From an uncultured virus (IMG/VR IMGVR_UViG_3300033233_000011) (Duplodnaviria > Heunggongvirae > Uroviricota > Caudoviricetes): a stretch of DNA of 64,000 nt. Both the position numbers and the translations under genes were made by a program. This document shows positions 1,290 through 46,210 of the stretch, piece after piece. A model generated the notes under the pieces. It was not told the DNA's origin. It ran no database searches and saw only the letters and a program-made list of their open reading frames with translations. The first letter of the stretch is position 1. Every line of letters begins with the position of its first letter. The stretch lies in IMG/VR virus record IMGVR_UViG_3300033233_000011; one strand, given 5' to 3'.

Positions 1290-1826
1290 TCACGCTTGCA
1301 CCGTAGACCCTGCGGCCTGTTTCGGGTGCGCCGGAGCCGACGCCGACCACGGCGCCCACCAGCGCACCTTGCGACCACCTTCGACGGGCGCGGCCCGGCG
1401 CCGGCTCGGTCGGTCGTAGCTCCCGCCCTTCGATTCGTGCTCCGTGTCTTCGATCCAGCCGGCCGCGCGCAGCGACGTGCCCGGTTCGTCGTCGTGGATG
1501 TACGTCCACATGTCCTCGCAACCCATCGCCCGAGCTGCGCGAGCGCACGCCGCGTACAGCATCGAGCAAGCGCCCTTGTGACCGCTCAGACTCGCGTCGC
1601 CTTCGAGCACGGCGACGCGGAGCACTTGGAGACGCGGCTGCGGCAAATCGCGGGATTCGAGCGCCTGTGCGTTGGGGCGCCCGACGACGGCGATCCCGCG
1701 CACGTCGTCGCCGCGCAGCACGGCGATTGCCCACATGCCGCCTGTCACCTTTGGCAGGCGACGATATGTGAGCTTGCACCAGCGTAGCGCCCGCTTGATC
1801 GGGATGGGCAGCAGGCGAAGGCTCAC
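1290..1826 (-). CDS. XF1762-family protein (GNAT/Mom-like putative DNA modification enzyme)
   Basis: Motifs GIAVVGRP, ACSMLYAACARAARAMG, TY...EPGTSLRAAGW and GGSYDRPSR are typical of XF1762 proteins. Confidence 0.75.
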   Translation of the reverse strand: MSLRLLPIPIKRALRWCKLTYRRLPKVTGGMWAIAVLRGDDVRGIAVVGRPNAQALESRDLPQPRLQVLRVAVLEGDASLSGHKGACSMLYAACARAARAMGCEDMWTYIHDDEPGTSLRAAGWIEDTEHESKGGSYDRPSRRRAAPVEGGRKVRWWAPWSASAPAHPKQAAGSTVQA

Positions 1827-2758
1827 AGCCCCATCCCGCGCGTGGCGTTGTAGCGATGCAGCTCGGCGACGCGGATGTAGCGCCGCACCATCGCGTTGTT
1901 GCCGTGCCCGGTGTGCCGCATGATCTCGCTCTCGGTCTTGCCGTTCAGCGCGGCCTGCGTGACGAAGCCGGCGCGAAGCGAATGCGCGCCGTAGCCCTTC
2001 GAGTCGAGCCCGGCCTTGCGCATCATCTTCTTGATCACCTTGTCCACATACTGCGGCCACAGGCCGATGCGCTCGCCCTCGACGATGCGGCCCCAGCGCG
2101 AGATCGGACGGAAGACGTGGCCGCTGTCGATGCCGCTCGCCGCGAGCCACGCCTTCAAGAGCTTCACCGGGCACGTCTCCGGGTGCTCGCCGGTGAGCAC
2201 CATCTTCTCGAAGCCGACGCCCTCCTGGTCGGTCTTGCTCGACGGCAGCAGCACCGTGAAGCCGTGCTCGTGGAACGTCAGGTGCTCGACCTTCAGGTCC
2301 GCGATCTCGTGCCGGCGGTTCGCAGTGGACCAGCCGAAGACGAGCATCGCCCGGTCGCGGTAGCCGATCAGGTCGTCCGGCGGCGAGGCCGCGAGCATCT
2401 TCTTCACGTCATCGAGCAGTAGCGGCTTCATGCCGACCTGGCGCACCTTCAGCGTGCGCCTGACGCCCCTCCACACGCGCTGGACCTCGGGATGAAAGCG
2501 CGGCGAGGCCAGGCCCTTCTGGACGTGCATGTCCGAGATCGACGACAGGAACTGGTTGATGGTGCTCACCGCGAAGCCCTCCTCGGCCATCTGCGCGACG
2601 TGCAGCGCGACAGTCTTCGGGTTTGCCGGGACGACCTTCTCCCCACGCTTCTTGCAGAGCTTCGCGAACTGGATCTTGCGCTCCACGTAGCTGGCCATCG
2701 TGGACTTGGCTTTCGCAGCTTCGGCGTACCGCTTCGCAGCGGCTTCGAGTTTCCCCAT
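1823..2758 (-). CDS. Tyrosine recombinase/integrase (Cre-like)
   Basis: RDRAML...RRHEI, SKTDQ, HSLRAGFVT, RHTGH and catalytic Y in RRYIR. Confidence 0.92.
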   Translation of the reverse strand: MGKLEAAAKRYAEAAKAKSTMASYVERKIQFAKLCKKRGEKVVPANPKTVALHVAQMAEEGFAVSTINQFLSSISDMHVQKGLASPRFHPEVQRVWRGVRRTLKVRQVGMKPLLLDDVKKMLAASPPDDLIGYRDRAMLVFGWSTANRRHEIADLKVEHLTFHEHGFTVLLPSSKTDQEGVGFEKMVLTGEHPETCPVKLLKAWLAASGIDSGHVFRPISRWGRIVEGERIGLWPQYVDKVIKKMMRKAGLDSKGYGAHSLRAGFVTQAALNGKTESEIMRHTGHGNNAMVRRYIRVAELHRYNATRGMGL

Positions 2759-6200: not shown

Positions 6201-8417
6201 CTGCTCGATCTGGATCACGGCGTGCTCGACGGACTTCATGACGAGAACCCAAACTCGCGAAGGACGACTCTTCCCGATGAGAAGACGCATCCGTGATTGC
6301 GCCTGCGACGATCCGCCACCATGAGCCGCCAGAAGTAGGATTCGTCGATGGTGAGTGCTCGCCACTCTCCGTGCTCCCAGCGGAGGCGGAGGCTGTGGTG
6401 TGGGTTCTCAGCCCACACCCTCGCTGCCGTCTCCACCGAGGCGTGCTCCTCGATGAGCTTCTGCGTGGCGAACGACAAATCGTAGAGCATCTGCCGTTCG
6501 TGTGGCGCGTGGTCGAGGTCTCCCTCGGTCACGCACATGGCCATGTTCCGCGCCTCGATCGCGAGAGCGAGCGGATCCCTGGGCGTCACGGCCGCTGCGG
6601 GGTCCTCGGCGCTCACGATTCCTCCGGCCCCTCGGGCTTCGGCGTCTCGGGCTTAACCGCCGGCGCTCGGCCGAGCTGGCTCAGCTCGAACTGCACCTGC
6701 GCCGGCACCGTGCGGTACGCGGCCGCGGCGCGCTTCGTCAGGGCCGCGTGGTCCGCGTCCGAGAGGCGCAGGGCGACGCCCCGGCCCTCGCGCGGGGTCG
6801 GGTGGGACTTCGGCTTCTTCTTGGGCTTCTGCTTGGACTTGTTCACTTGGGATCCTTTCACGGTTTCGGCGGGAACGGCCCGACTTCTTTCCAGAGGCGA
6901 ACGTCCGGCCCCTGCGGCTTCGGGACCGTCGTCTCGGTCTTGCTGCGGTGGCCGCGGAGAGGGTCGAGCCGTAGCAGGCTCTCGCAGAGGAGTTGCATCT
7001 CGTGCGGCGGGACCACGACGAGTTGGCGCTGGTGCGCGCTGGCGTCCGCGGCCTGCTCCCACCAGTACCGTGCGAGCATGTACTCGTGGGTCGTGAGCGT
7101 CTCGGGGAAGCTACTCTCGGGGATCTGGATCGGCGGCGCGTTCGTTGCTTGGGGGAACGGCTCAGGCGGACCGACCGGCGACATGGCCGCGAGCACCCGC
7201 CGCGCCTCGTCGCTCACGGCCTTCGCTGCGGCCGGCGACGCGCGCAGGTCATCCATCGACGAGTTCTTCATGCCTTCCTCCGTTCCAGCATCTTCACGCG
7301 CCGCGCCCACTTCTTCTCGATCGTTCCCGCGCGCTTCGCCCGCGTCACTGCCCGCGCCAGCATCGAGCGCGCGTGCGCGAGCTTGTCCGAGAATGCCGCT
7401 TTCTGGACAGGTGCTGCGGGCTCGACGTTCAGGGCCAGCCCACGCGCCCACTCGACCGACTGCGTGCAGTACATCTGCGGTTCGGTCATGTCCTTGTGCC
7501 GAGCGCCGATCGCGTGAAGGGCCTCGTGGTGCATCGTGCGGGCGACTTGGTCGCGGAAGGAGGCCGGGGCGTACGGCGCCCACGGCGCGCCTTCTTTCTG
7601 CGCCTCCGCAGCGAGTGCCGAGGAGAGGGCTACGCCCCTGGCTTCTGTCTCTGGCGTCGGCAGGCGGAGCGTGCACAGGCCGGGTCGCCCGTGTCGGCCG
7701 AGCCAGCAGTTGCCGCCTACGCCCGCGCCGCGTCGGTTCTTGACGACCAGCGCGCCGCCCGCGCTCGCGCCCGCAGCCTTGAGCGCCGCCTTGTAGAGCG
7801 CGCGCAGGTCGGCGGTGGACCAGCGGGTCTGGTTCTTGATCGAGATCCTCACGAAGGCATCTCCCGGCTCAGCACCATCTTCATGGTCGCCGTCCCGTGC
7901 GGGGTCGCGACGAGCAGCCTCAGCGTGCCACCCGCCGGCAGGGCGAACGCCAGCGAGAGCTTCTCTCGGTAGAAGTGCTCCTCGCTCGGGGCCATCGCCT
8001 TGATCGCCCGGATGAAGTGCTCCGGCTCCTCGCCGGCCTCGACGAAGTCCACGGTCATGAACTGCGCCTCGACGACGAGCACCACCGCGGCGACGGTCTT
8101 GTTCGTCTCGTAGCCGCTCGCGCGCAGGCCCGCGGCGATGCTCGGCGCGGCGGCGGAGAGCAGCGTCTGCTCCTCGGCGGTGAAGAGGTTCGTGGAGTCG
8201 AAGGTCACTTGCGCCTACGAGCGCGGCGGCGCTTCGAGATCGCGAGGGCGTCCTCGCCCAGCGCGAGGCGGGCGTCCTGGATCGTCATGGTGAGCGCGTC
8301 GCGAACCGATGCCAGTACCGAGGGCAGGACGTGCTCGTGGAGCTGGCCCTCGTAGGTCGTTAGCGCGTAGAGCGCGAGGTCGAGGTGCGTGACGGCGATC
8401 AGCGGCAAGCGGCTCAC
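3258..8417 (-). other. Run of small, translationally coupled hypothetical phage genes (e.g. 3258-3485, 3871-4212, 4418-5014, 5011-5373, 5370-5681, 6236-6616, 7849-8208, 8205-8417)
   Basis: Successive ORFs joined by 4-bp GTGA/ATGA overlaps, all on the minus strand. Confidence 0.65.
7268..7852 (-). CDS. HExxH-motif putative zinc metalloprotease-like protein
   Basis: TMHHEALHAIGARH motif. Confidence 0.5.
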   Translation of the reverse strand: MRISIKNQTRWSTADLRALYKAALKAAGASAGGALVVKNRRGAGVGGNCWLGRHGRPGLCTLRLPTPETEARGVALSSALAAEAQKEGAPWAPYAPASFRDQVARTMHHEALHAIGARHKDMTEPQMYCTQSVEWARGLALNVEPAAPVQKAAFSDKLAHARSMLARAVTRAKRAGTIEKKWARRVKMLERRKA

Positions 8418-8590
8418 GAGCCCCCCACGATCTCGCCCTCGGCGCAGCCCGCGAAGCAGCTCTGGTACCCGTCCTCGCGCGTGCAGTGGTGCGCGCCCGA
8501 GAGCGCCCCGTCCCGGCGCTCGTAGGTCCAGGTCCGGCCGTCGCCCACGGCGACGAACCGGTCGCCCTTCTTCATCTCGTCGATCCGCAT
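8414..8590 (-). CDS. 58-aa hypothetical protein (not in the ORF track)
   Basis: ATG preceded by AGGAGG and a TTGACA hexamer; translates MRIDEMKKGDRFVAVGDG... Confidence 0.6.
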   Translation of the reverse strand: MRIDEMKKGDRFVAVGDGRTWTYERRDGALSGAHHCTREDGYQSCFAGCAEGEIVGGS

Positions 8591-8634
8591 TAGGTGATTC
8601 CTCCTAGCTACTAGGTGAAACGTCCTAGTGTCAA
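8591..8634 (-). promoter_or_regulatory. Sigma70-like promoter (TTGACA at 8634-8629) with two TAGG-N8-CCTA palindromes (8591-8606, 8612-8627)
   Basis: Perfect -35 hexamer; the palindromes overlap the spacer and the RBS; the -10 element is not clear-cut. Confidence 0.7.
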
Positions 8635-8649
8635 ACTTTATTCACCGAC

Positions 8650-8732
8650 GCGCCCGAAGCGACGACCGGATCCCGCCGGCAGGAAACCGACCAAGGAGAC
8701 CTCCGGAGAGATCCGACCGTCGCTTCGAGCGC
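8650..8732 (-). ncRNA. Long hairpin: candidate sRNA and/or terminator, with loop region antisense to the start-associated sequence
   Basis: gcgc-cgaagcgacg/cgtcgcttcg-gcgc, cggatc/gatccg and ccgg/ccgg stems; A-C mismatches on + become G-U pairs on -. Confidence 0.55.
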
Positions 8733-8877
8733 GCCGGCTACTTCCGCTTCCTCTTCTTCGACTTCAAGACCGTGATCTTCTTCCCCTCGACCAAGTACAC
8801 CGGCCCCGTCGGGACGAACGTTCCGCCCGGCAGGCGCGCCGGTCCGAGGTTCACGGGCACGCCCTTGATCTTGCGGA

Positions 8878-9429
8878 TCACGTGGCCCTCAGCGTGGCGT
8901 AGCGGACGCCGTCGCGCTGCAGCTCGGCGTAGACCGCCTCCTGCCGCAACTTGCCCGCGAGTGTCTCGGCGATCTTGCCGACGTTCTGCTCGAACTTCTG
9001 ATCGTTCTCGGCGCTCAGGCGCAGGATCACGACTTGCACGCTGTCCTCGGGGATGGTCTTGCCCTTCGACTTGCCGCGCGTGTACTTGTACAGGCCGCGC
9101 TGAAGCAGGAACGACGCGCCCGGGTCGCCGCCGATCCGCCGGAGCTGTGCGAGGCGCATCTTCTTCACGATCTTGAGCACGTCGTCGACCGAGTACGTCG
9201 GCACGCCGTCGACCGAGAGCCCCACGAAGATGCGCGCGGACAGGGCCGGGTCCGTGTCGCGAGTGACGGGGTTGCCCTGGCGGGTCGAGTGGCGAAGCGC
9301 GCTCACGTCGCCGATCTCGTAGACCTTGCCGTGCGGCTCGAAGGAGCAGTCCGGGTGGCGAAACGCGCGCAGGTCGACCTTGTAGGTGCCGCGCTTCAGG
9401 GGGTTCGAGAGACGGGTGAAGTCGGTCAT
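8878..9429 (-). CDS. Hypothetical protein with N-terminal RLSNPL tag
   Basis: Begins MTDFTRLSNPL; TACCAT -10-like element just upstream. Confidence 0.7.
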   Translation of the reverse strand: MTDFTRLSNPLKRGTYKVDLRAFRHPDCSFEPHGKVYEIGDVSALRHSTRQGNPVTRDTDPALSARIFVGLSVDGVPTYSVDDVLKIVKKMRLAQLRRIGGDPGASFLLQRGLYKYTRGKSKGKTIPEDSVQVVILRLSAENDQKFEQNVGKIAETLAGKLRQEAVYAELQRDGVRYATLRAT

Positions 9430-10705
9430 GGCGCGCTCGATGGTAGCAGGGGCCGGACGCGAGAGACGAACGACTCGACGATCTTCGCCGCGTTCTCCTC
9501 GTCGAAGTAGTATTGGTTCCACTTGCCGGAGTAGGGGTTCATGCCCTCGATGCCGAGGCTGTTCGCGCGCTCGATGTCGTCGAACCGGCAGAAGACCTGG
9601 CCGCCGTGACTGCCCGTAAATGACGGGCACGGGCTCATGCGCAGCGTGCCGGCCTTCGTCTCGATCGCGTGGCGGTGGTCGCCCTCGTACCAGGACTCGC
9701 ACGGCGTCGCGCCGAGCTGCCGGAACGCTACGAGCACGGCGGCCGTGAACGCAGCCTGGGCGCGCTCCCGCTGGCGAGGGCCGAGCTTTCGGGGACGGGG
9801 CTTCGATGCTGCGCCCGCACGGCTGGCGGGGCTCACGACCACACCAACACGACGCCGCCCAGCTCCCGGACGCGGTCGAAGATGGCGACGATGCGCGCCG
9901 CGATCCAGTCCCGGTCCGCGATGCTCTGCCAGTTGCGGGCGCGGTACTCGACGAGGAGAGTCGCGAGGTCGTTGTCGAACGCCGGCACGACGAAGTCGGC
10001 GCCGAAGTTGCCGACGAGCGACCCGTCCCACTCCCACAGCACCCGGCCGCCCTCGCGGGCGTTCACGTCGCCGAGCCAGGCGACGCCGTGGCGGTCGCGC
10101 AGCTCCGCGATGGCCGCGCGGCTGGCGTCGTTCAGGGCGCTGTCCGCTTCGGGGATGCAGCCGTCGCCCTCGCGGATGGCGCGGGCGACTTCGTTGGCGA
10201 GGTTCTGGGATGCGGTCATGGATTTCTCCTCGCTTCTACGTCGTAAAAACGCGCCCCGCCGTTTCCACCCGACCTCCAGCTCCGATACGTGAACGGCCGG
10301 CGGCAGCACCGGCACGTGGCGTTCTTCCAGCGCCGGCCCGTGACGCGGCCGGTCACGCAGTTGTGGCAACACGGACAGGTGACGGGCAAGGTCATGGCAG
10401 CACCACCCACGTCTCGCAGGCGTGCTCGTACGCCGCCGCGATCAGATCACGTACACGCTCCACCTCTGCCTCGTCGCCGTAGGCTGCGGTCAGCAGTTCG
10501 CCGCCGCGGCCGACTCGGTAGATCTGCGCGATCTCGGAGTGTCTGCCGGTGCGGCCGGGTCGCATCGTGATCGAGAGATCCTCGCCCTCGTGCTCCGTGA
10601 GCCAGTCGGTCGCGCGCTGACAGGCGTCCGCGTGCTCGTCGTCGCTGATGGCGTCCAGCGTGCCCCAGCAATCCGGGTACACCACGTCGACGTACTCGGC
10701 GGCGC

Positions 10706-10885
10706 TCACGACCGCTCCTCCGGCGCCCCGTGCTTCTTCAGAAAGCGCTGCACCCGGGCGCGCTCCTTCTCGCCCATCGCTGCCAGCTCGCGGTCGGGCA
10801 CGGCCCACGCCGAGAGCCAGCGCTGCTCGTAGACGCTCCAGTACGTGAGCGATCCGTCGCGGCGGAACTTGGTCTTGATGCTCAT
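10706..10885 (-). CDS. Small hypothetical protein
   Basis: ATG directly follows AAGGAGACCGACCA. Confidence 0.65.
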   Translation of the reverse strand: MSIKTKFRRDGSLTYWSVYEQRWLSAWAVPDRELAAMGEKERARVQRFLKKHGAPEERS

Positions 10886-10901
10886 TGGTCGGTCTCCTTT
10901 T

Positions 10902-11375
10902 TCAGTGGATCTTGAACCCGCCGCAGTCGCGCAGGAACGCGATGAACTCGCGGACGTTGTCGACGTCGAACGGGTAGCTCGTATCCCACGGGCGGCGCCA
11001 GCCCGAGGCTTCGCAGCCGTTGCAGGGCTGCTTGCCCGGTCCGGTCTTCGGCGGCACTGCGCGCTTGCCGGTGCCGCCGCAGATTTCACACGATTCGCTC
11101 GGCATCGCTTCGAGCGTCGCTGCGCGCTCGCGGGCGTACTGCTCGGTGCGGCCGGCGTCGATCTCTTCTTGCAGCCTGGCGGCGAGCTTCACCGAGCGCG
11201 CCGCGTTCAGTCCCTTGCCGTCGTTGTAGTGGCCAGCTTTTGCGAGCTGTGCGTCGATCAGTTCCGGTGCAACCTCGCAGCAGTAGTCCCACAGCGGGCG
11301 CCACCACCAGCAGTTGTTGCGGAAGTATTTGCCCGTCTCGCTGCTCGGCTTCTTGCCGTAGACATCCATTCCCAT
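10902..11375 (-). CDS. Hypothetical protein with DnaJ-type CxxCxGxG zinc-finger repeats
   Basis: CEICGGTG and CNGCEASG; preceded by the start-associated sequence. Confidence 0.75.
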   Translation of the reverse strand: MGMDVYGKKPSSETGKYFRNNCWWWRPLWDYCCEVAPELIDAQLAKAGHYNDGKGLNAARSVKLAARLQEEIDAGRTEQYARERAATLEAMPSESCEICGGTGKRAVPPKTGPGKQPCNGCEASGWRRPWDTSYPFDVDNVREFIAFLRDCGGFKIH

Positions 11376-11908
11376 TGGTCGGTCTCCTTTTTCAGGTCAC
11401 GTTCATCCAGCGTTCGTCGTCTCGGTTCGGCTTGACTTCGACCCAGCCCCGCTCCCGCACCAGCTCCCGGGCGTCTTGCAGCGCCGCGCGCTGAAAGCCG
11501 CGCGGGCGCACGTCGTCCGCCTCGGCGATCTTCTCGCGCGTGCGGGCGTCGCGCACGACGCCGCGGCAGGCCAGGGTGAGGCCCTCGGTGCGGAAGTCGA
11601 TGTAGACGGAGCGGGTCACGGGCGCCTCCCCGCGGGCCGGTCGCCGCCCTGCGCGGCGAAGACGTCGATCGAGTCGGGGTCGCCGCGGACGGGGGCGGTC
11701 CGGGGTGGGACGCCGAGCGCCACGCGGTCGCCTACCTTGACATCGGGAGGTGCGAGCCAGAAGCGGAGCTTCTCGGACCGCGCGCCGTCCCGGTCGGTGT
11801 ACCGGGCAACGACGGCGCTGATCGGATCGGTCGTGCCTTCCACGACGGCGCCCGGGCCAGCGCCGAAGCGCGCGTCGTCGAGCATGATGACGATGAGCGG
11901 CGCGGACA

Positions 11909-12244
11909 TCAGTGCTTGCTCCAGGTCACGCCGTCATGCGTGTGGAGCCCAGCCGCCACGGCCCGCGCGTCGACCTTGCGGCCGGCGAGCTTCTCGGCCT
12001 TCGCCACGGCCTGGCGCAGCGCCCAGCTATTCGCGGCGGTCAGCGTCCGGTACGCGCACACGTCCGAGACGTCGCGCCGGTTGTCTCCGTCCCAGCCGTC
12101 GAACATGATGCCGCCCTGCGGGCCGACCTTCACGCGCGCGCGGCCGCTGTTGAGCGCGTCTTCGAGGAGCTTCAGGGCCGATTCGATCTCGGTCCGGCGC
12201 TCGGCCGGGGTCTGGTTCTTGCGGACGTAGGTGTCACAGGGCAT
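11909..12244 (-). CDS. Hypothetical protein near the AAA ATPase module
   Basis: MPCDTY start with AAGGA upstream; GC3-biased frame. Confidence 0.65.
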   Translation of the reverse strand: MPCDTYVRKNQTPAERRTEIESALKLLEDALNSGRARVKVGPQGGIMFDGWDGDNRRDVSDVCAYRTLTAANSWALRQAVAKAEKLAGRKVDARAVAAGLHTHDGVTWSKH

Positions 12245-12486
12245 CGGACAATTCCTTTTCCGAGACTTCTCGCCAAGCTCGCGGGCGGACCTGTTCGTAG
12301 ATGGCAACATGCGTGGCCCCCACTGCGTTCGCCTTTGCTGAACTGAGCGTGTTCGTCTCAGCGAGACATCGCCGTCCCTTGCCGTCGTCGACCACGACGG
12401 CGAAACGGTGGCCAAGGGCACCGATCCAGCGCAGCACTTCAGCGTCCGCGGCCGAGATGCCGGCGCCTTTCATCGTGCGATCCATC

Positions 12487-13212
12487 TCAGACCTCCAGCG
12501 CCCGCGCCGGCTCGGCGCTCTCGACCACACCCGCCCGCACTGGCTCCACGTCCAGGAACGCGAACCGGCTCATCTCGACCGCGGCGAGCTGGGTCTCCAG
12601 CCCCTTCGCGGTCTCGCCGTCCTTCGCCGCCTTGGTCAGCTCCCGGGCCGCCTTGCGAGCGGCCTCGATCCCGACCTGGACGCGCGCGGCGCTCGACTCG
12701 TCGAGCACGCCCGAGACCTGCTTGACCTTCGTCGCCGCCTCGCGGATCTCCTCGACGTCGCCGGCCTTGATCCCCTGCGCCATCCGGGCGAGTAGCCCCT
12801 CGATCTCGCTCGCGACGGCCTTGGCCGCCTCGGCTTCCGACTCGGCGATCCTGAGCTGCAAGACGAACAGCTCGACGCGCGTGGACTGCGCGCCCGCGTT
12901 GTGGACGGCGCAGAGCGTGCGCGCGTTCTCGACCGCTTCGTTCAGCTCGGGGATCCGAGCGGTCGGGCAGAGCAGCAACCGGCTCGCGTTGATGCACACC
13001 TTCTCGACGAGTCGCCGGGCCTCGCTGCGCGTGTTCGAGGCGCGCGTGAACTCGGCCGGGTCCGCGATCTCGCGCCGGGTCTCCCAGCTCGCGACGGCCG
13101 CGCCGCCTCCGTTGGTGTGCTCGACTTCCAGCTCCTTGCGGAAGTAGGCGACACCGCCCTTCACTGACGATTCCAGAATCACGATGACTCCGGGCTTCAA
13201 GATGGTCAACAT
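12487..13212 (-). CDS. Alpha-helical hypothetical protein downstream of the AAA ATPase
   Basis: 241 aa, start-associated sequence, coiled-coil character. Confidence 0.75.
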   Translation of the reverse strand: MLTILKPGVIVILESSVKGGVAYFRKELEVEHTNGGGAAVASWETRREIADPAEFTRASNTRSEARRLVEKVCINASRLLLCPTARIPELNEAVENARTLCAVHNAGAQSTRVELFVLQLRIAESEAEAAKAVASEIEGLLARMAQGIKAGDVEEIREAATKVKQVSGVLDESSAARVQVGIEAARKAARELTKAAKDGETAKGLETQLAAVEMSRFAFLDVEPVRAGVVESAEPARALEV

Positions 13213-13270
13213 TTGGTCGGTCTCCTTGCTTCGTGTGTTAGGTGAAACGTCCTACTCGGTCAATCTATTC

Positions 13271-14842
13271 TCACAAATCGAGCGCTCGCCCCGCGCCCGC
13301 GCCCTCGGCGGCCTCGGGCAGCGACGCCGGCCGCGCGCGGCCCTTGGCCCAGTCGCGGAGGCCCTGGATCTTCTCGGCCTGGGTCTTCGACGACGGGACG
13401 ACGCTCAGCGCGGAGGTGATGAGGTCGTCGATCGTCAGGTCGCGCTCTGCCTCGGTGAAGGCGTAGAAGAGCGCGTCCGGGACGAGCGCTGCGATCTCGG
13501 CGCCGGTGAAGCCGCGGGTGTGAGGTTCGAGGATCCCGAGGTCGCCGACCTGTTCGGGGTCGCGCCTGTAGAGGCGCAGCGACGCGGCTAGGATGTCCCG
13601 GCGCTCGCGCGCCGTGGGAAGATCGACGAAGAACGTCTCGTCGAACCGGCCCTTGCGCGTCAGCTCGGGCGGCAGGTAGCGCGTTTCGTTCGCGGTCGCG
13701 ATCGTGATGATCGATCCCGATCGATCCTGCATCCAGGTCAGGAACGTGCCGAGCATGTCCGACGAGACGCCGCCGTCGCCCTGTGGCCCGCTCGCGCCGG
13801 CGAGGGACTTCTCGATCTCGTCGAGGAAGAGAATGCAGGGCGCCACGGCCTCGACGACGGCGAGGGCCTTGCGGAAGCCGGCCTCGGATTCGCCGACGTA
13901 TTTGCTCTTCGTCGCGCCCATGTCGAGCCGGACGATCGGCAGTTGCAGCGCTGCGCCCGCGCACTTGGCGACGAGCGTCTTGCCGCAACCACTGATCCCG
14001 TACAGGAAGATCCCCTTCGGGGGCGGCAGGCCGAAAGTGCGAGCGCGGGGTGACAAGGCGGTCTTCATGCGCCGCAGGCAGCTCTTGACGTTGTCGAGCC
14101 CGCCGATCGCGTCGAACCCTCGCGGGTCCGGGTCGTAGATCGTCAGCCCCGAGGCCTGCGACACGATCCGCTTCTTCTCTCCCGAGACCTGCGCCGGGTC
14201 GATGCGCCGCACCGTGACCAGACTCTTGGCGTACGAGTTCCCCGCGCCCTGGCCCGTGAGCCCCGTCGCCGCGTCGATCGCCGCCTCGCGCCGGCCGTTC
14301 ACGAGGTCGCCCTTGACCGCGTCGCGCAGCGGGTTCCCGTCGCGATCTTTCTCGGCCAGGACGTCGACCGCGCGGTCGAGGATCGCCGCCAGCTCCTGCC
14401 GTTCGGGCAGGGGCCAGTCGATGACGGTCGCCAGGTCCGAAAGCTCCGGGGGGACTTTCGCCTCGGGCGTCAGCACGATGATGCTCCGCGCCTCGGTGCC
14501 GGGCGATCCTTGCAGGTCCCTCGCCAGGTTCTTGAGCTTGCGGATCGTCGGGTAGTCGAGGCAGGCGTGCAGGTCCCGGAGCACGTACACGGCGCGCGCC
14601 GTGCGCTCGCGGATCGTCGCCAGGATCCGCGCGGGGTCGCCGTTCGGGTCGATCACTTCGCCGCTCGCGTCGCAGAGGCCCTTGTCGCAGTCCCAGAAGA
14701 GCACCGGGTACCCGGCCGCTTTCGCGGCGGCCTTGATCTGGTCCTCGACGCGGGGCTCCTCGACGGAGACCGTCCAGACGAGCGTCACGCGGGAGCGCAG
14801 GAGCGCGGAGAGGTCGTCCCGGGCTTGGTCGTTCTTGGTCAT
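13271..14842 (-). CDS. AAA+ ATPase (Ycf46-like, with a degenerate N-terminal AAA domain)
   Basis: Walker A GISGCGKT, Walker B ILFLDEIEK, SKYVGESE, TAN...LPPELTRKGRFDE. Confidence 0.92.
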   Translation of the reverse strand: MTKNDQARDDLSALLRSRVTLVWTVSVEEPRVEDQIKAAAKAAGYPVLFWDCDKGLCDASGEVIDPNGDPARILATIRERTARAVYVLRDLHACLDYPTIRKLKNLARDLQGSPGTEARSIIVLTPEAKVPPELSDLATVIDWPLPERQELAAILDRAVDVLAEKDRDGNPLRDAVKGDLVNGRREAAIDAATGLTGQGAGNSYAKSLVTVRRIDPAQVSGEKKRIVSQASGLTIYDPDPRGFDAIGGLDNVKSCLRRMKTALSPRARTFGLPPPKGIFLYGISGCGKTLVAKCAGAALQLPIVRLDMGATKSKYVGESEAGFRKALAVVEAVAPCILFLDEIEKSLAGASGPQGDGGVSSDMLGTFLTWMQDRSGSIITIATANETRYLPPELTRKGRFDETFFVDLPTARERRDILAASLRLYRRDPEQVGDLGILEPHTRGFTGAEIAALVPDALFYAFTEAERDLTIDDLITSALSVVPSSKTQAEKIQGLRDWAKGRARPASLPEAAEGAGAGRALDL

Positions 14843-17800
14843 GGCTTCGTCTCCTCGAAGGCGAGCTTGACCTGTTCGAGCAGGGCCGCCTCGGACTCCT
14901 CGGCCGTGGCGAGCGCTTCGCGGAGTCTGTGCAGCGCTGTCTCTGCCGCGGTGACGGCGATGCGCGTGTCGGATGCAGCGCGTTGTGCGACGCGATGCAG
15001 AGCTTGAATGGCGGCGAAGTCGATGGTCATTTGGTCGGTCTCCCTGTCCCCCGTCGTTAGGTGAAACGTCCTAGCCCTGGTCCCCATTCCCGCGTTCCTG
15101 CCGGCGGTCGCGGTCCCGCTCGCCCGAGAGCACGTACGCCAGATCGGCCGGCGTCGCCTCGGTCACGCGCTCGCCCTCTACCAAGTACAGGCGCGGTTCC
15201 GGGCCGCCCGGTGTCCGGACCGTGACCACGCGCTCGCGGATCCGCGTCTCCGTCATGGTGCTCCGGTACTTGTCGGCCGAGATCACGTGCGTCCCGCACG
15301 TGTAGAGCAGCCAGCCGAACGCCGCGGGGCAGTCCGAAGAGCGGAGCATGTTGAGATCGTGGACGTGGAGGTCGGTCGCGAAACTCTGCGGCAGGCCGTG
15401 CTTCTTGGACTCGGCGCAGAGCGCCGCGTAGGTGCGATCGGCCGGGGTCTGGGGCTTCTTCTTGGGCATGGGTCAGGCTCCGATCTTCTGCGCGTCGTCG
15501 CGCACGTTGTAGCCGGCGATCCGGTTCCGCGCCGAGACGATGCGCTCGCACGCGATCCGCTCGGACAGGTACTCGGGGAGCCCCGCGAACGTCCGACAGT
15601 CACCGTCCCACCGATCGACGTACTTCGCGATCGTGTGCGGGCGCTGGCCCGGGTGACGGAACGTGATTACGACGATCCCACCGTCCGCGCGCTTCGCCCC
15701 GAAGAGCTGGGCGCGGTAGTGGTCTTCGCCGTCGATCCACCAGTCTTCGACGTGATCCGGCTTGTCGCCGTTCGCGACGTAGCCGAGCGCCAGCGATAGG
15801 ATGCCAGCCTCTTCACGGTTCGCGTTCGCGCGCTCGACGGCTTGGTCTCGGGTTTCGCGTTTCATGACTTCACCGCGTTCGGATCCTGCGGAGCCAGCAC
15901 GCCGATTTCCTGGAGCTGTTCGGCGGTCCCGACGTACCACTTGCCGCGGGGCGGAAAGATACTCCAGCCGAAGAGCAAGCCACGCTCGACGGCGAGCGCT
16001 CGCGCGGTTTCTTCGTTGTTGCACGAGAGCATCGGTCAGGCCTCCCACTTGATGAGCTTCAGGCTGTACGGCAGTCCCGCCAGGTGTTCGCGGCCCCAGA
16101 CGATAGCCTCTTCCTCGGTCGCGAACGCGCCGCGAGTGAGGGGATCGAACGCTCCGCCGCGCTCGGTCTCGGTCGGGTGCCACTCGGTCGCGAACGCGCT
16201 CGGCACGCTCGGGACCACGAGGGTCCAGTAGTCGTTTCCTTCTTTCAGGGGCATTGGTCGGTCTCCTTTTCGATCTTCTTACCGGCTCGGGTGCGTGGCA
16301 AGCCGCTTGCAACGCGCCCGAACCGGTTAGGGCTCGGGTCCTACCTCACTTCACCAGCGTCGCGATTGCCCTCAGTTTCTCGGCGCGCTCGCGTGCCGCT
16401 GCGCTGCGTGCGGTCGCGTTGCCGGAGAGCTGCGCATCCAGCGCCGCGTGCAACGCCTTGAGCGCGTCGCCGTCGCGATCGTACTTGACCAGATCACGCG
16501 CGGCCTCCTCCGCGGTGCTGTATTCGACCGCGGCCTCCCACGTGGTCGTAGACCCCTGCCAGCGGGACCAGCCGCCGCTGTACTTGAGCCACGCGATCCG
16601 GCCGTCCGTCAGCAGGAAGACGTCGGAGCCGTCGAACGCGCCAGAATTCGCGCGCGCGTCGCACCTGCCCGGGCCCACGGCGTCCGTATCGAGGTGGACC
16701 CCGCGCTCGGGTAGATGCGTGCCGGTCTCCACCTGATCGTAGTTCACGTCACCGAGGTGCGACTGGCGGCTGCTCACCTTGATCCGGCTCGCGAGCGCCC
16801 GCAGCGCGGGGCGAACCGCGTCGAGCGCGACCTGGAGCACTGCAGCGCGGGCCCCGCGCTCCTCGGTGACGGCCGCCGCCAGATCCTCGTGCTGCGCGGC
16901 GACGGCTGCCGCTTTTTCGGACAGATCGTTGATCGTTTCCATTGGACTACTGCTTTCTGCGGCTCCTCGCCGCTGTTTCGGCCACTCCTCGTGGCCTAGT
17001 GCCCGCTCGCGGAGCCATCCGCGAGAGCGCCGGGGGCCGTCCCGGCTCGGGCTTTCGATCATGCAGCGTGACGGGGGGCCTCCTTTGCTAGCGCGTTGAA
17101 GAGCGCGCCGATCTTCACGGTCTCGGCGCCGCACGCGAACATGAAGCGCTCGACGTCGAACCGGGGGTTCTCCTCGCGAAAGAACACGGCGAAGAGAGTC
17201 GCGGTGTTCTCGCGGCAGCTTGCCTTGGGAATCGCCGCGACGAGTCGCGCGGCGCGGACGAAGTCTTTCTTGGTACGCATTTGGTCGGTCTCCTTGTTTC
17301 GCGTTTCCGTTACTGCCGCGGAGCTACCTCCGGCGCCCTGCGGCAGGCCCAGACGTCGCTGTCCAGCGCGCCCGCGGCCTCCTCCGCGGCGATGATCTCG
17401 TCCAGGTGCGAGAGCAAGAAGTCACACGCGCCGTCCAGCTCTTCCAGCGTGAGACTCTGAATCAGCACGCCGTCTTCCTCGATGATGAGAGTAGCCATTT
17501 GGTCGGTCTCCTTCGGTCTCCGTTGCTGCCGTCGTGTCGTTAGGTGATACGTCCTACTGCGATCCCTCATTCCCCGGTCCGATCTTTTTTTCGATCGGGC
17601 CGGGACGCGAGGGCCTCACTCGGCCGCTTGCGCTACCTCCTCCGCTGGCGAGTCGCCGTCGATGCCGCGGAACGAGGCGAGCGCGGCGAGCGCCGCGGGC
17701 AGGTAGCAGGGCACGCCGCGAACCAGCGCCCAGCCGGCGCGCACGCGGCCCGTGGGTGAGAAGGCGTCGCGGAACGCGGGCGCGGTCGCGAAGCGTGCCC

Positions 17801-18098
17801 ACTGCGCGGCGTCCGCGTCGCGCGCGGCCTTCGCGGCGTCGCGCTCGCTCTTCACATGCGCGCGGGCCACGCTGGCCAGCTCCGCGAAGCCCCGGGCGTT
17901 GCCGCGCACGACGTCGCGCTCGCCCTTCGCAGCGTCGCGCGCCTGCTTCGCGACGATTCGGCCCGCCTGCTTCTCCGCGCGCTCGCGCTCGGACTGCGCC
18001 GGTCGCGCGCCGAGGAGGAGCCACGCGCGATCCCAGATCGCGCCTTGGGTCGGGACGGGCGCGGGGCCCTCGTGCCTGATTTCGTTGTGGGTGTACAT
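14839..18098 (-). other. Leftward early-type small genes (14839-15030, 15071-15469, 15473-15865, 16036-16254, 16346-16942, 17059-17280, 17310-17498, 17616-18098)
   Basis: Most begin at a start-associated sequence or at a stop/start overlap. Confidence 0.65.
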
Positions 18099-18149
18099 GG
18101 TCGGTCTCCTTCGGTTCCGTTGCGATTGCAATACTAGGATGCAACACCT

Positions 18150-18640
18150 AGGCCAAGTCTCCTACCGAACCTCCCCTAATGATTCCGCACACTTAGCGCT
18201 CGACGCGGTGCATCATGTGTGTCTTTTGCCGCAACACTGTGGCGTCACAGATACAGTTACCAGTGATTCCGCACAGTTACCGGCGACCTTGACGGTAACT
18301 CGTCAGGCCCTCCGGTTGCCGGTAACTGGGTGCCTCGACCGGGCCGGTTACCGGTAACTGAAAACTGGACGAGCGGTCAATTTGAGCCGTCCGGCCAGAA
18401 TTGGACCCCTGAAAACTGGCCGGGTGGAATGAATTGGTGAAAACTGGCCGGTCGGATCAAATTGACCGATCGGCCAGAATTGGGCAACGGTGTGGATCTA
18501 TTGGGGCCCTTTTTCGACCGTCCCGGCATTGAGCAGCCAATGCGGCCCGATAGCTGCGCGCTGGCCCGTTCGATTCCCGTCCCATACCAGCCGGCTTTTT
18601 GCGTTGCCAGATCCGCCCCCGCGTGCTAGCGGTCGGGGGC
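18150..18640. promoter_or_regulatory. Divergent intergenic region with iterated short repeats (candidate origin or control region)
   Basis: Strand switch, lower GC, TGAAAACTGG x3, CGGCCAGAATTGG x2, multiple CAGTTACC/GGTAACTG, GATTCCGCAC x2. Confidence 0.55.
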
Positions 18641-18943
18641 TCATGGATCCGACTTCCGACTCGCTGCTTTTGTGCTGCGGCGGCAAGAAATGCCCGACGA
18701 TCTCAGCCAAACCCGACGGATCATTCGCGCTCAGCGACGCGGCCGAGGGCTGCCCGCCGATCGCGCTCAGCCGCGAGCAAGCGGCGCTCATGGTGACGTG
18801 GCTCGGGACGAAGCTCCGCGCGCCGGCCGAAGCGGCCGAGTGAGGCTCGTTCGGCTGTTTCTCTGCTCGATCTGCGATCGTGAGGCCGTCGCGTCGCGCG
18901 GGGCCCTGGTGCTCTGCGCCGAGTGCGCCGGGATGCTCGCCGG

Positions 18944-20234: not shown

Positions 20235-21329
20235 TTGTCAGTGAAAAAGATCGTGGTCGTCGGCGGGGTGGTCGTGCTCCGGCGAGACCATCCGGAGCCG
20301 GCGGCGCACACCGATGCCGTTGAGGCGCCGACTGCTGCGATCGAGGTTGTCCCGCGCGAACCAGCCGTTCTGGCCCGTTTTGGGGTTCCAGTGCCACTTC
20401 CGACGCCGAACGGCGCCGACGTGCTCGCGGACTTCCTCAGCAGCCGCTCGGAGGAGACCGTGCGCGCCTACCGCCGGGACCTCTCGCTGTTCGCCCAGTT
20501 CTTAGGGCTCGCCCCGGGTGATGTGCAGGGGGCCATCGCGACGCTCGTCGCGGCGACCGAGCAACAGGCGCGCCTTGCCGTCAAGAACTGGCTCGTGAAG
20601 ATGCAGGCTGAAGGGCTGTCGGCGGCGACGCGCGCTCGGCGGCTCGGCTCGCTGAAGAAACTCGTGCGTGTCGCACGCGAAGCCAAGGTCATCGACTGGT
20701 ACCTCTCGCTGCAGCCGCCGAAGAAGGAGCCGGTTCGTGACAATCGCGGCCCCGGCGTCGACGTCGTCCGGCAGATGCTTGCCGTCTGCGGCGGCGACGT
20801 CGAGGGGTTGCGCGACCGCGCGATCGTGACTCTGCTCGGGATCGCTGGCCTGCGACGTTCCGAGGTCTCGTGGCTGAAACTCCGGGACTACGACCGGGCG
20901 AGTCGCGTGCTCAAGTTCCTGCGCAAGGGGGGCAAGTCGTTCACGTTCGTGATGCCGGCCGAGGACGCCAAGACGCTCGAAGCGTGGCTCGTGGCATCGG
21001 GGAACCGGACCAATCCAGTGTCCCCACTCGTCTACTCGCTCACCTGCTCGGCCGTCGGGCGCCGACTCAGCCCGACCGGCGTGTACTTCACCGTGCAGAA
21101 ACTCGCCAAGAAGATCGGTACCGATCTGCACGTCAGGCCGCACGGGTTGCGGCACACAGCGATCACCACGTCCGAGAAGAAGACCAACGGCAACGTCGTC
21201 GCGATGCAGAGCTTTTCTGGGCACGCGAGCGTGCAGACCTTGATGGGCTACATCGACGACAAGAACGAGAAGGGCTCCGAGGTGCTGCGCCTGGTCTCGG
21301 AGGAGGTGCACGGGCCGAAACAGTCTTGA
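20235..21329 (+). CDS. Tyrosine recombinase (XerC/D-like)
   Basis: SEETVRAYRRDL, RDRAIV...GLRRSEV, HGLRHTAIT, SGHASVQTLMGY; start codon uncertain. Confidence 0.92.
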   Translation: MSVKKIVVVGGVVVLRRDHPEPAAHTDAVEAPTAAIEVVPREPAVLARFGVPVPLPTPNGADVLADFLSSRSEETVRAYRRDLSLFAQFLGLAPGDVQGAIATLVAATEQQARLAVKNWLVKMQAEGLSAATRARRLGSLKKLVRVAREAKVIDWYLSLQPPKKEPVRDNRGPGVDVVRQMLAVCGGDVEGLRDRAIVTLLGIAGLRRSEVSWLKLRDYDRASRVLKFLRKGGKSFTFVMPAEDAKTLEAWLVASGNRTNPVSPLVYSLTCSAVGRRLSPTGVYFTVQKLAKKIGTDLHVRPHGLRHTAITTSEKKTNGNVVAMQSFSGHASVQTLMGYIDDKNEKGSEVLRLVSEEVHGPKQS

Positions 21330-25879: not shown

Positions 25880-26155
25880 GTGGACTACGAGCGGTTCTCA
25901 AATCCGATCAGCGCCCGGAAGCGGCTGAACAAGGAGACCGCGCAAGCACTCGCGACGGCAAAGCGCGAAGGCTGGCGAATCAAGTGGCTCGAACCCGGTG
26001 AAAAGCCCGGACGGAACCTGGTGCGCGCCTGGGTGCAGACGCGCGGCGGCGAGACGCTCACGACTCTCACCAGTGGCAGTCCCATCCCGCGCTCGGAGAG
26101 GAAGAGCTACGAGCACGACCTGTTCTGGGAGGCGTGGATGCGTTCGCGCCGGTGA
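25880..26155 (+). CDS. Hypothetical protein with N-terminal RFSNP tag
   Basis: (M)DYERFSNPI; GGAGG RBS. Confidence 0.7.
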   Translation: MDYERFSNPISARKRLNKETAQALATAKREGWRIKWLEPGEKPGRNLVRAWVQTRGGETLTTLTSGSPIPRSERKSYEHDLFWEAWMRSRR

Positions 26156-29972: not shown

Positions 29973-31070
29973 GTGCTCCGCAGCTACCGCTATCCGCTCC
30001 GGCCTACGGTGGCGCAAGAAGCGAAGCTCGATCAGTGGCGCATCGCCTGCTGCGACCTCTACAACGGCGCCCTCGAAGAGCGACGCGAAACGTGGCGCCG
30101 GCAACGCTACTGCGTGACCTTCTACGACCAGCAGCGTGAACTCGTCGAGCTGCGGCATTCGGTCGCGGAGTGGGAGTCTGTTCCCAGCGACATCGCGCGC
30201 AGTGCATTGCGCCGTCTCGATCGCAGCTTCAAGGACTTCCGTCGCCGTCTTCGGCGCGGAGAAGATCCCGGCCCGCCTCGTTACCGCGGTGTCGATCACT
30301 ACAAGTCCTTCAGTCTCGGAGATCGTCACCGAATCGTCGAGAACCGCCTGCACGTTCCGAAGCTCGGCTGGGTGAAGCTACACCTGTACCGGCCGCTCGG
30401 CGGCCCGGTGCGCGACGTGGTCCTGAAGAAGGAGGCCGGCGGTTGGTTCGCCTACGTCGTCTGCGACATCGGCGCCGCGCCGCCGAAGGGCGTCGTGCAT
30501 CCGAACAAGATCGTCGGCATCGACGTGGGGCTCAACGTGCTGGCCGTGCTATCGGACGGTGGCGCCATTGAAAACCCGAGGTACATGAAGAAAAGCGAGG
30601 TGCTGCTCGCACGACGCCAGCAAGCGTACCGCCGCAAGCGTCCTGGATCACGAAGCCACGCGCGAGCCGTGAACCTCGTAGCGAGGATGCGGCAACACAT
30701 CGGCGATCAGCGGCTCGACTACGCCCGCAAAACCGCCAAGCAACTCATCAACAACTACGACTTGATCGTGCATGAAGACTTGCAGATCGCCCGCATGGTG
30801 CGGGGGAACTTCGCGAAGTCCATCCACGACGCCGGCTGGGGAATCCTCTTGCGGTGCATCGCTTCCAAAGCGGAAGAAGCTGGGAAGCACGTCATCGCAG
30901 TAGACCCCCGCGGTACCAGTCAGCGGTGCAGCATGTGCGGGAAGGCGGTGGCGAAGGACCTCTCGGTCCGCGTCCACGCTTGCCCTAACTGCGGCTACAC
31001 CGCTGACAGGGACCTCAACGCCGCTCGGAACATTTTGGCGCTCGGTAGGAGCGTGGTGGCGGTCGCATGA
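29973..31070 (+). CDS. tnpB: RNA-guided endonuclease TnpB (IS200/IS605 family), no adjacent TnpA
   Basis: YRYPLRPT HTH, RuvC GIDVG / HEDL / DRDLNAARNI, zinc finger CSMCG..CPNCG. Confidence 0.95.
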   Translation: MLRSYRYPLRPTVAQEAKLDQWRIACCDLYNGALEERRETWRRQRYCVTFYDQQRELVELRHSVAEWESVPSDIARSALRRLDRSFKDFRRRLRRGEDPGPPRYRGVDHYKSFSLGDRHRIVENRLHVPKLGWVKLHLYRPLGGPVRDVVLKKEAGGWFAYVVCDIGAAPPKGVVHPNKIVGIDVGLNVLAVLSDGGAIENPRYMKKSEVLLARRQQAYRRKRPGSRSHARAVNLVARMRQHIGDQRLDYARKTAKQLINNYDLIVHEDLQIARMVRGNFAKSIHDAGWGILLRCIASKAEEAGKHVIAVDPRGTSQRCSMCGKAVAKDLSVRVHACPNCGYTADRDLNAARNILALGRSVVAVA

Positions 31071-45109: not shown

Positions 45110-46210
45110 TCACGCCGCCTCCGGCGCGCTCAAGCCGAGCGCCAAAATGTTCCGAGCGGCGTTGAGGTCCCTGTCGGCGGTGTAGCCGCAGGACGGGCAG
45201 GCGTGAACACGGATCGAGAGATCCTTGCTCACCACCGTCCCGCACATGCTACACCGCTGACTGGTCCCGCGGGGATCTACGGCGATGACGTGCTTGCCAG
45301 CTTCTTCCGCTTTGCAAGCAATGCACCGCAAGAGGACTCCCCAGGCCGCATCGTGGATCGACTTCGCCAGGTTCCCGCGGACCATCCGCGCGATCTGCAA
45401 ATCTTCGTGGACGATCAGGTCGTAGTCGTTGACGAGCTGCTTGGCGACCTTCCTCGCGTAGTCGAGTCGCTGGTTCTTGATGTGCTCGTGGGAGCGGGCA
45501 ACGAGCCGCTTCGCGCGACGACGAGATCGGCTGTCGCGTTTTCTTCGAGCAAGTATCCGTTGGCGTCGGGCGAGCTGCTCTTCCGCTTCTCGAAAGTACC
45601 GCGGGTTCTCGACGACGCCGCCGTCGGAGAGCGTCGCGAGTTTCGTGAGCCCCACGTCGATCCCGACGACCTTGCCGGGACGAACGGCAACCTTCGGAGG
45701 CGCCTCGCCGACGTCACATGCGACGCAGGCATACCAACCCTTCGCGGAACGATGCAGGATGATGTCGAGCACTTCACCACCGAGGGGCCGGTAGAGGTGC
45801 ACCTTCACGTCGCCGAGCTTCGGGATCCGGATCCTCTTCGCGGCGAGATCGATCGCGACGCGACCGACCGAGAACGAATCGTAGCGGTCGCGACTCTTGA
45901 AGCGGGGATAGCCGGGCGTCTTGCCGGTCTTCACTCGCTGGAAGAACCCCTGAAAGGCGCGTTCGAGGCGACGCAGTGGTGACCGCATGACAGTCACCGG
46001 GATGTCTCGGTACTCGGCGGCGTCGCGACGCAACTTCGTCAACTCCTTCTGCTGGTCGTACCGGGTGATGGAGACTCGCTGACGGCGGTACGCTTCGCGT
46101 CGTTCTTCGAGAGCGGAGTTGTAGAACCTCTGGCAGGTGAGCAACCAGCGATCCAGGATCGCCTCCTGGATCTTCGTCGGTTGGAGCGGGTAGCGAAACG
46201 TCCGAGTCAC
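45110..46210 (-). CDS. tnpB: RNA-guided endonuclease TnpB, second copy, no TnpA
   Basis: FRYPLQPT, GYPRFKS, GIDVG / HEDL / DRDLNAARNI, CSMCG..CPSCG. Confidence 0.95.
   Translation of the reverse strand: MTRTFRYPLQPTKIQEAILDRWLLTCQRFYNSALEERREAYRRQRVSITRYDQQKELTKLRRDAAEYRDIPVTVMRSPLRRLERAFQGFFQRVKTGKTPGYPRFKSRDRYDSFSVGRVAIDLAAKRIRIPKLGDVKVHLYRPLGGEVLDIILHRSAKGWYACVACDVGEAPPKVAVRPGKVVGIDVGLTKLATLSDGGVVENPRYFREAEEQLARRQRILARRKRDSRSRRRAKRLVARSHEHIKNQRLDYARKVAKQLVNDYDLIVHEDLQIARMVRGNLAKSIHDAAWGVLLRCIACKAEEAGKHVIAVDPRGTSQRCSMCGTVVSKDLSIRVHACPSCGYTADRDLNAARNILALGLSAPEAA

Follow-up and report, generated by a model that had tools for sequence, protein, structure and literature searches.

A gene-strand RNA hairpin whose tip mirrors the ribosome-binding tag of eight upstream genes

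A 64-kb stretch of DNA (referred to here as the window) contains a 95-nt hairpin that folds better as RNA of the gene strand than of the opposite strand, begins in the stop codon of the gene before it, and lies downstream of eight genes that share a 14-nt ribosome-binding tag. The tip of the hairpin is complementary to this tag, and the complementarity distinguishes the eight tagged start codons from other starts nearby. To judge from the sequence, there is an even chance that the hairpin is a 3′-end structure doubling as an anti-RBS RNA that acts on the tagged genes.

The hairpin and the tag that its tip mirrors

A first-pass annotation of the window had placed a hairpin of ~83 nt at 8650-8732. 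This structure is real, but it is slightly larger than was first described.

8644..8738, minus strand: RNA hairpin of 95 nt whose 31-bp lower stem is joined through a 1-nt bulge to a 4+3-bp upper stem, topped by an open tip

The fold comprises 40 base pairs, including 34 Watson-Crick and six G-U pairs. All six of the G-U pairs reside in the 31-bp lower stem, where their plus-strand counterparts are A-C mismatches, and because of these exchanges the minus-strand RNA (MFE of -76.4 kcal/mol, z = -8.87, with none of 200 shuffled sequences as stable) is favored by 16.5 kcal/mol over the plus-strand RNA (-59.9 kcal/mol). The proposal that the minus strand folds better by converting A-C mismatches to G-U pairs is therefore borne out. 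When DNA parameters are used instead, the hairpin folds on both strands with only a small asymmetry (-38.4 versus -34.5 kcal/mol). The evidence supports the minus (gene) strand as the functional strand of the hairpin.

Across both strands of the entire window, the hairpin is the most stable fold among 8,520 segments of 110 nt (runner-up -67.8 kcal/mol, mean -42.9, sd 7.8), and it is the sole uninterrupted single helix among the 14 top folds listed. The tip is built differently from the stem, with 3-nt bulges, a 2-bp helix, and a 6-nt loop (UUGGUC). When isolated as a 39-nt RNA, it is no more stable than shuffled sequences (z = -0.75), and therefore the hairpin can be viewed as an open, loose head carried on a rigid stem. 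Further copies of the hairpin arms were not found within the window, and an origin from a repeat family or MITE was rejected because the arms are unique there. No Rfam family was detected at the gathering threshold across the window, and none was detected over positions 8500-8900 at E values up to 1. The DNA stems from a sediment metagenome, and the contigs of one DNA run that may be its source yielded only the source contig over the whole stretch, with no variant of the hairpin.

The tag itself, AGGAGACCGACCAA, is strongly overrepresented. When up to two mismatches are allowed, there are 10 matches in the window compared to 0.46 expected, and none of 100 shuffled sequences reached this number. 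Eight copies are on the minus strand, six of them exact and two with one mismatch (15031 and 18097).

10885..10898, minus strand: RBS tag, exact, preceding a 59-aa ORF
11375..11388, minus strand: RBS tag, exact, preceding a 157-aa ORF
13213..13226, minus strand: RBS tag, exact, preceding a 241-aa ORF (phrog_11021, like Corndog gp95), with a 16-bp element 12 nt upstream
15031..15044, minus strand: RBS tag, one mismatch (first A to G), preceding a 63-aa ORF
16254..16267, minus strand: RBS tag, exact, preceding a 72-aa ORF
17281..17294, minus strand: RBS tag, exact, preceding a 73-aa ORF
17499..17512, minus strand: RBS tag, exact, preceding a 62-aa ORF, with a partial second copy (GGAGACCGA) before the tag
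18097..18110, minus strand: RBS tag, one mismatch (last A to T, within the ATG), preceding the 160-aa ORF that opens the array

Each of these eight copies ends at or overlaps an ATG codon (0-1 nt), so that the AGGAG core is located 7-9 nt from the start codon, and the earlier view of an RBS motif common to eight genes is correct. The sequences flanking the tag vary from site to site, and the spacer ACCGACCA is conserved among the tagged starts; ribosome binding needs no fixed spacer sequence. In this region of 68% G+C, tag copies are confined to positions 10885-18110, all upstream of the hairpin, and none is found downstream on the minus strand. Searches of Pfam and PHROGs assigned no function to seven of the eight tagged genes, and the eighth matched only phrog_11021, a family of unknown function. 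A screen for other standardized RBS tags among the collected loci of at least 8 kb returned only this window and three Cluster K genomes. A plus-strand match with two mismatches is present at 25932-25945 (AGGAGACCGCGCAA), which has no start codon in reach and probably is due to chance.

An inverted copy of the tag, AGGAAACCGACCAA, occupies positions 8681-8694 of the plus strand with one mismatch and forms the tip of the hairpin; no other inverted copy with one mismatch or fewer exists in the 64 kb. Both antisense segments that had been proposed for the apical region, including a second match of 9 nt, can be located in the minus-strand RNA.

8694-8681, minus strand: anti-RBS register 1, UUGGUCGGUUUCCU, which pairs with AGGAGACCGACCAA by 13 Watson-Crick pairs and 1 G-U pair
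8701-8693, minus strand: anti-RBS register 2, GGUCUCCUU, the complement of AAGGAGACC, which is found at seven of the eight tagged starts
Within the hairpin tip, minus strand: loop segment UUGGUCGG, whose counterpart in the tag is the conserved spacer

Register 1 spans the apical loop, the 2-bp helix, a UUU bulge, and a 3-bp helix (CCU). Given the base composition, chance would yield 0.006 plus-strand copies with no more than one mismatch per 64 kb, and 1e-6 within the tip, which supports the view that the complementarity between tip and tag is far above chance. The complementary span of the mirror coincides with the conserved span of the tag. Moreover, the sole deviation of the mirror is a C-to-U change that retains pairing as G-U, and only four of the 42 possible single changes would preserve pairing by wobble in this manner. 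The same deviation read on the plus strand would break the Shine-Dalgarno core (AGGAG to AGGAA).

The energetics of pairing were modeled by setting the 25-nt tip against windows extending from -25 to +5 relative to each start codon, with the cost of opening both partners added (contexts of 141 nt for the hairpin and 121 nt for the targets). The pairing anticipated for the tagged leaders is predicted to be favorable in eight of eight cases, with net energies ranging from -9.7 to -16.4 kcal/mol (mean -13.8), and is weak at 22 other starts of the same genomic island, where values range from -5.2 to +20.4 kcal/mol (mean +6.2). This separation quantifies the complementarity already known and is not independent evidence for it. 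The predicted duplex at the tagged starts covers positions -15 to 0 or beyond, and the A-to-G mismatch in the 15031 tag is tolerated through a G-U pair. Roughly half of the anti-RBS segment takes part in base pairs within the tip, whose opening costs 8.6-11.8 kcal/mol, and the net values of the model show that the stem would not lock the mirror away. Unconstrained duplex prediction with 120-nt contexts was discarded, as it produced long, loop-ridden duplexes in targets and non-targets alike; with RNA this rich in G and C, the method yields large energies for many non-targets too.

Gene order and the nature of the element

The hairpin lies within an array of minus-strand genes that, as judged by third-position GC content and ORF layout, is continuous from about 18098 down to about 3258.

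8878..9429, minus strand: 183-aa ORF, whose ATG (9427-9429) shares bases with the TGA of the preceding ORF (ATGA)
8738..8881, minus strand: last ORF before the hairpin, 47 aa, GC3 of 0.96
8612..8634, minus strand: TTGACA (8629-8634) and a 16-bp element, TAGGACGTTTCACCTA (8612-8627), promoter- or operator-like, 9 nt past the hairpin

Base pairing in the stem begins at the stop codon (TAG, 8738-8740) of the 47-aa ORF, of which the G is the first base involved. This ORF is translationally coupled to ORF 8878-9429, whose stop overlaps its GTG start. The hairpin had been described as lying 3′ of an operon that begins at 9429. It does lie 3′ of every tagged gene, but the ATGA overlap at 9427-9429 means that this position is not an operon start. 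On its other side, the stem is followed by GUGAAUAAAGUU and then by the TTGACA motif. A degenerate second copy of the 16-bp element that contains an RBS (8591-8606) is present between the 8612-8627 element and the downstream ATG (8588-8590).

Four copies of the 16-bp element with one mismatch or fewer are present in the window, all on the minus strand; only 0.15 are expected even if up to three mismatches are allowed.

8612-8627, minus strand: 16-bp element before the gene at 8590
13239-13254, minus strand: 16-bp element before the gene at 13212
15058-15073, minus strand: 16-bp element before the gene at 15030
17541-17556, minus strand: 16-bp element (1 mismatch) before the gene at 17498

The element thus precedes three of the eight tagged starts and one untagged start, and a variant with TAGG...CCTA ends precedes the first gene at 18098. 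To judge from their sequences and placement, these elements look like promoter or operator sites. The hairpin, flanked as it is by a stop codon and a promoter-like element, thus appears to close the transcription units that hold all the tagged genes.

Several additional features were noted in the same region. A GAAT motif is conserved about 12-14 nt further upstream of the 16-bp elements. A small hairpin (17575-17594, CCGATC-GAAAAAAA-GATCGG) is located in the gap after the first gene, just upstream of the element at 17541. The intergenic segment at 18140-18700, ahead of the first tagged gene, is dense in repeats and rich in iterons. A 46-nt unit with TGAAAACTGG at its start is found there twice, with an abbreviated 27-nt version in between, and the segment also contains three copies of TT(A/G)(A/C)CGGTAACT and a 34-nt inverted repeat (18365-18398 and 18444-18477). 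The segment may serve the island as an origin or as an operator region.

The array belongs to a 17.5-kb island flanked by two integrase genes.

1823-2758, minus strand: tyrosine integrase gene, left flank of the island
20235-21329, plus strand: tyrosine integrase gene, right flank of the island
13271-14842, minus strand: AAA ATPase, like Corndog gp96
12487-13212, minus strand: 241-aa ORF, like Corndog gp95
11909-12421, minus strand: 170-aa ORF, like Corndog gp94/93

The last three of these features form a block (11909-14842) that shares its gene order with Corndog gp96, gp95, and gp94/93, the proteins being 34-44% identical in amino-acid sequence. Likeness to phages is limited to this three-gene block, and relatives of the AAA ATPase at ~40% identity are widespread in the genomes of Armatimonadota and other phyla. 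No virion genes were recognized and no tRNAs were found in the window, and neither a relaxase nor a rolling-circle replication gene was recognized in the island. The right half of the window carries IS transposases, glycosyltransferases, and methyltransferases. Two of the transposase genes (29973-31070 and 45110-46210) belong to the same family, phrog_506, and are situated amid the glycosyltransferase and methyltransferase genes. The tagged genes had been called early genes of a phage, which is not supported: the region is an island between two integrase genes and virion genes were not recognized, and therefore neither term can be considered established. As far as the data go, the sequence is best described as an integrated phage-like element.

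No close relative of the element was found. A megablast search of positions 8000-11000 against phages returned no match. With the AAA ATPase as the query, identities were at most 49% among 80 of 106 relatives in GTDB genomes and at most 35% at six loci in IMG/VR, and the best value was 51% among 80 of 127 relatives in JGI metagenomes. ORFs 8878-9429 and 12487-13212 had no relatives in IMG/VR. In a large protein collection, the 183-aa ORF has one relative with 86% identity (P0002), encoded on a 1.6-kb contig, and one with 40% identity. A 17-mer composed of the tag plus ATG matches 24 contigs in IMG/VR with one match apiece, which looks like chance. Similarly, a 12-mer of the tag occurs no more than once per locus across 190 loci; 25 loci matched, 24 of which had been retrieved by that very pattern.

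A parallel in Cluster K mycobacteriophages

Cluster K mycobacteriophages carry a 13-bp start-associated sequence (SAS) that prefers ATG starts (80/93) and has a partner that was left open as RNA or protein; for the ESAS inverted repeats, the same paper favors DNA-binding proteins (Pope et al. 2011, PMC3203893). The role of SAS is stated as undefined in this 2011 paper and in papers from 2024 and 2025. No paper describing the reverse SAS as a hairpin loop or as an anti-SAS hairpin was found in literature searches with incomplete coverage of subscription journals.

In phage Anaya, positions 20000-60835 contain 16 forward SAS copies and one reverse copy. The reverse copy falls between gp96 and gp97, which are 385 bp apart, at a distance of about 190 nt past a canonical terminator, and corresponds to the 10-nt apical loop (CCUCCUAUCC) of a hairpin on the plus strand, which is the gene strand (record positions 59849-59899). 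This hairpin has an outer helix of 10 bp and an inner helix of 6 bp, and the surrounding 161-nt region folds with z = -3.99 on the gene strand versus -1.83 on the other strand.

A 71-nt region comprising the Anaya hairpin matches 122 Mycobacterium phage records at 80-100% identity, from which 14 phages were chosen for alignment to span the range of identities. The sequence CGCGG-CCTCCTATCCC is identical in 14 of 14 phages, and the stems and flanks vary. Despite this variation, the stems are paired in 98.5% of 203 cells (the unpaired ones being one outer-helix cell and two inner-helix cells), compared to 33-50% of cells when the partners are slid as a control. Two pairs have changed on both sides, and several G-U pairs have been exchanged for G-C or A-U. 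The covariation is modest, with its score reached by 14 of 500 shuffles and the count of both-side changes reached by 86 of 500. A conserved reading frame is ruled out by 1-nt indels among these phages, though some records annotate an ORF here. Not all phages with the tag carry a mirror. No reverse copy with two or fewer mismatches and no CTCCTAT core were found in TM4 (3000-52797, 11 SAS) or in Pixie (12000-61000, 18 SAS), and therefore a mirror RNA is not needed to explain a conserved tag.

The SAS system and that of the window have much in common. In both, an asymmetric tag with a Shine-Dalgarno core is conserved beyond this core and is found, at a distance of only a few nt, next to the starts of many non-structural genes in one orientation. 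ATG starts are preferred in both (8/8 here, compared to 80/93 in PMC3203893). Each has one reverse copy away from gene starts, which in Anaya and in the window is the tip of a hairpin. A second repeated element precedes a subset of the tagged genes in each case, ESAS in Cluster K and TAGG-N8-CCTA, with dyad ends, in the window, and the two may be comparable. There are also clear differences. The 16-bp element of the window is one short element with dyad ends rather than a pair of 17-bp repeats like ESAS, and the mirror of the window is a 95-nt hairpin at a stop codon, whereas that of Anaya is in a 385-bp gap. The tags are unrelated, as the SAS consensus GGGATAGGAGCCC with up to two deviations has no matches in the window, and shared genes were not detected between Cluster K and the window. 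The system of the window is classed as an analog of the SAS/ESAS system rather than a member of it.

Possible functions and known RNA systems

If the hairpin acts as an anti-RBS RNA, it would be made from the minus strand at the 3′ end of leftward transcripts carrying the eight tagged cistrons. Its 31-bp stem would be a very stable 3′ structure between the gene block and the next promoter-like element, where it would probably stabilize the transcript end and might halt or pause RNA polymerase or bar the way to 3′ exonucleases. Its length also makes the stem a candidate substrate of RNase III. The weakly paired tip would expose about 21 nt that mirror the private tag. First contact could be made between the open loop UUGGUC and GACCAA, from which pairing would spread over positions -15 to 0 and cover the segment from the Shine-Dalgarno sequence through the spacer to the first base of the start codon, such that 30S binding would be blocked. 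The polycistronic RNA that carries the hairpin could be its target in cis; alternatively, a stable 3′ fragment could accumulate and act in trans. Either way, the outcome would be a group-wise damping of the tagged genes. Transcription, accumulation, and pairing in vivo with the tagged leaders are presumed here, as is a negative sign of the effect. With a single hairpin for as many as eight targets on each transcript, the hairpin would have to accumulate for repression to be strong. No U-tract is found past the stem (tail GUGAAUAAAGUUUG) and a consensus terminator scan does not list the site, and therefore the hairpin might sit inside a read-through RNA rather than at its 3′ terminus.

The main rival is the less probable but still quite possible explanation that the hairpin is a plain 3′-end structure, such as a U-tract-independent terminator, a processing site, or a stabilizer. 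Under this explanation there would be no regulatory pairing, and the match between loop and tag would be a historical by-product, for example of a captured gene-start cassette. The order of stop codon, hairpin, and promoter-like element is typical of terminators, strand-biased G-U pairs are to be expected of any RNA hairpin, and the SAS tags of TM4 and Pixie persist without a mirror. Although this rival fits the position of the hairpin, it does not account for a 13/14 match in the tip that is expected about 1e-6 times by chance, nor for an unrelated phage group that keeps the same layout with an invariant loop. There is also no nearby inverted gene or repeat to explain a captured cassette, given that the arms are unique in the window, and the tip consists of two overlapping antisense registers rather than a palindromic junction. 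The absence of a U-tract likewise speaks against an ordinary 3′-end structure.

An improbable alternative is that the element operates as DNA. In this case, a protein would bind the tag, and the hairpin would be a ninth, reversed site flanked by inverted repeats; alternatively, the repeats might form a cruciform or, as part of a replication or transfer origin, a hairpin of single-stranded DNA. Some precedent comes from Cluster K, as PMC3203893 allows RNA or protein as the SAS partner and favors DNA-binding proteins for ESAS. Both strands of the hairpin do fold with DNA parameters, and an iteron-rich region (18140-18700) is present elsewhere in the island. However, the placement of the tag at a fixed 0-1 nt from the ATG at eight of eight sites points to the RNA level, as do the six wobble pairs that all favor one strand and, in the Cluster K hairpin, both the exchanges of gene-strand G-U pairs for G-C or A-U and the strand difference in z score. 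Moreover, no relaxase or rolling-circle replication gene was recognized in the island. Because the wobble pairs are strand-specific and the tag is strictly tied to start codons, this explanation is less likely, and the same is true for an active plus strand. The latter possibility, in which an antisense transcript carries an RBS-like decoy (AGGAAACCGACCAAGGAGACC) or a small plus-strand ORF begins here, is very improbable: the tip read on the plus strand has the appearance of two tandem RBS tags, but no ATG, GTG, or TTG is within RBS distance, the sole deviation breaks the Shine-Dalgarno core, the fold is 16.5 kcal/mol weaker with six A-C mismatches, and the neighboring genes are all on the minus strand. 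A plus-strand ORF at the hairpin was rejected because a start codon is absent.

Should the anti-RBS reading hold, it might extend beyond this element. It is conceivable, though doubtful, that a ‘tag and mirror’ arrangement is a recurrent form of translation control in phages and phage-like elements of high-GC bacteria that was invented more than once. It is equally tentative that one same-strand hairpin titrates a whole privately tagged gene set in such an arrangement. In the window, the terminal hairpin of the operon would itself contain the mirror, and its 31-bp stem would yield a fragment that is long-lived, possibly after RNase III trimming, and that sets the time of shut-off by accumulating. 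Regulation by anti-Shine-Dalgarno RNAs is known; the potentially new aspect is a private tag whose mirror appears to be built into the terminal hairpin of an operon. This would constitute a one-to-many translational switch written in short sequence tags on a mobile element, with a regulator that ends the transcript it regulates. If the arrangement is genuine, the reverse SAS hairpin of Cluster K1 phages would be the missing SAS partner. The parallel makes the long-open SAS question directly testable, given that K1 phages are engineerable and are grown on M. smegmatis. Also, a private RBS tag and its mirror hairpin would be a compact orthogonal part for the synthetic control of gene sets.

Several known systems provide useful points of comparison. 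An intrinsic terminator is a GC-rich stem-loop located just past a stop codon, which describes the window hairpin as well; however, the hairpin has no U-tract, its stem is far longer than usual, and its loop carries a specific complementarity. The sib element of phage lambda is a 3′ hairpin that acts by retroregulation. The window hairpin shares with sib and other 3′ hairpins its GC-rich nature, its location after a stop codon, and a long stem that suits RNase III.

The loops of C4 antisense RNAs pair with sites at the RBS. C4 RNA of phages P1 and P7 represses by base pairing with targets that are downstream on the same strand in the same operon (Citron and Schuster 1990; as cited in PMC8198154). 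C4 is a processed, dedicated RNA that is encoded upstream of its targets and has one target region, whereas the window hairpin is at a 3′ end and has eight. For the 6C/B11 sRNA of Actinobacteria, PMC10470900 describes hairpin loops that pair with the RBSs of many mRNAs and repress translation without long exact antisense. In that account, B11 is a chromosomal stand-alone sRNA whose C-rich loops recognize generic G-rich Shine-Dalgarno sequences, whereas the loop in the window mirrors a private 14-nt tag. Furthermore, 6C/B11 RNAs have two C-rich loops, in contrast to the single hairpin of the window, whose loop is not a run of C residues. The Rfam covariance models for C4 and 6C/B11 gave no match to the window or to positions 8500-8900.

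Pairing within one message is described for the icaR 3′UTR of Staphylococcus aureus, which pairs with its own Shine-Dalgarno sequence, blocks initiation, and creates an RNase III substrate (PMC3868564). The icaR case concerns a single gene with a single site, and the icaR motif is not placed in the tip of a terminator-like hairpin; the window hairpin faces eight sites on a presumed polycistronic transcript. The hallmark of this type, which is a 3′ motif complementary to Shine-Dalgarno regions upstream on the same strand, is present in the window at the level of sequence for 8 sites. Overall, the window hairpin would by analogy work in the manner of the icaR 3′UTR, the B11/6C loops, and the C4 RNA of P1, without belonging to any of the three.
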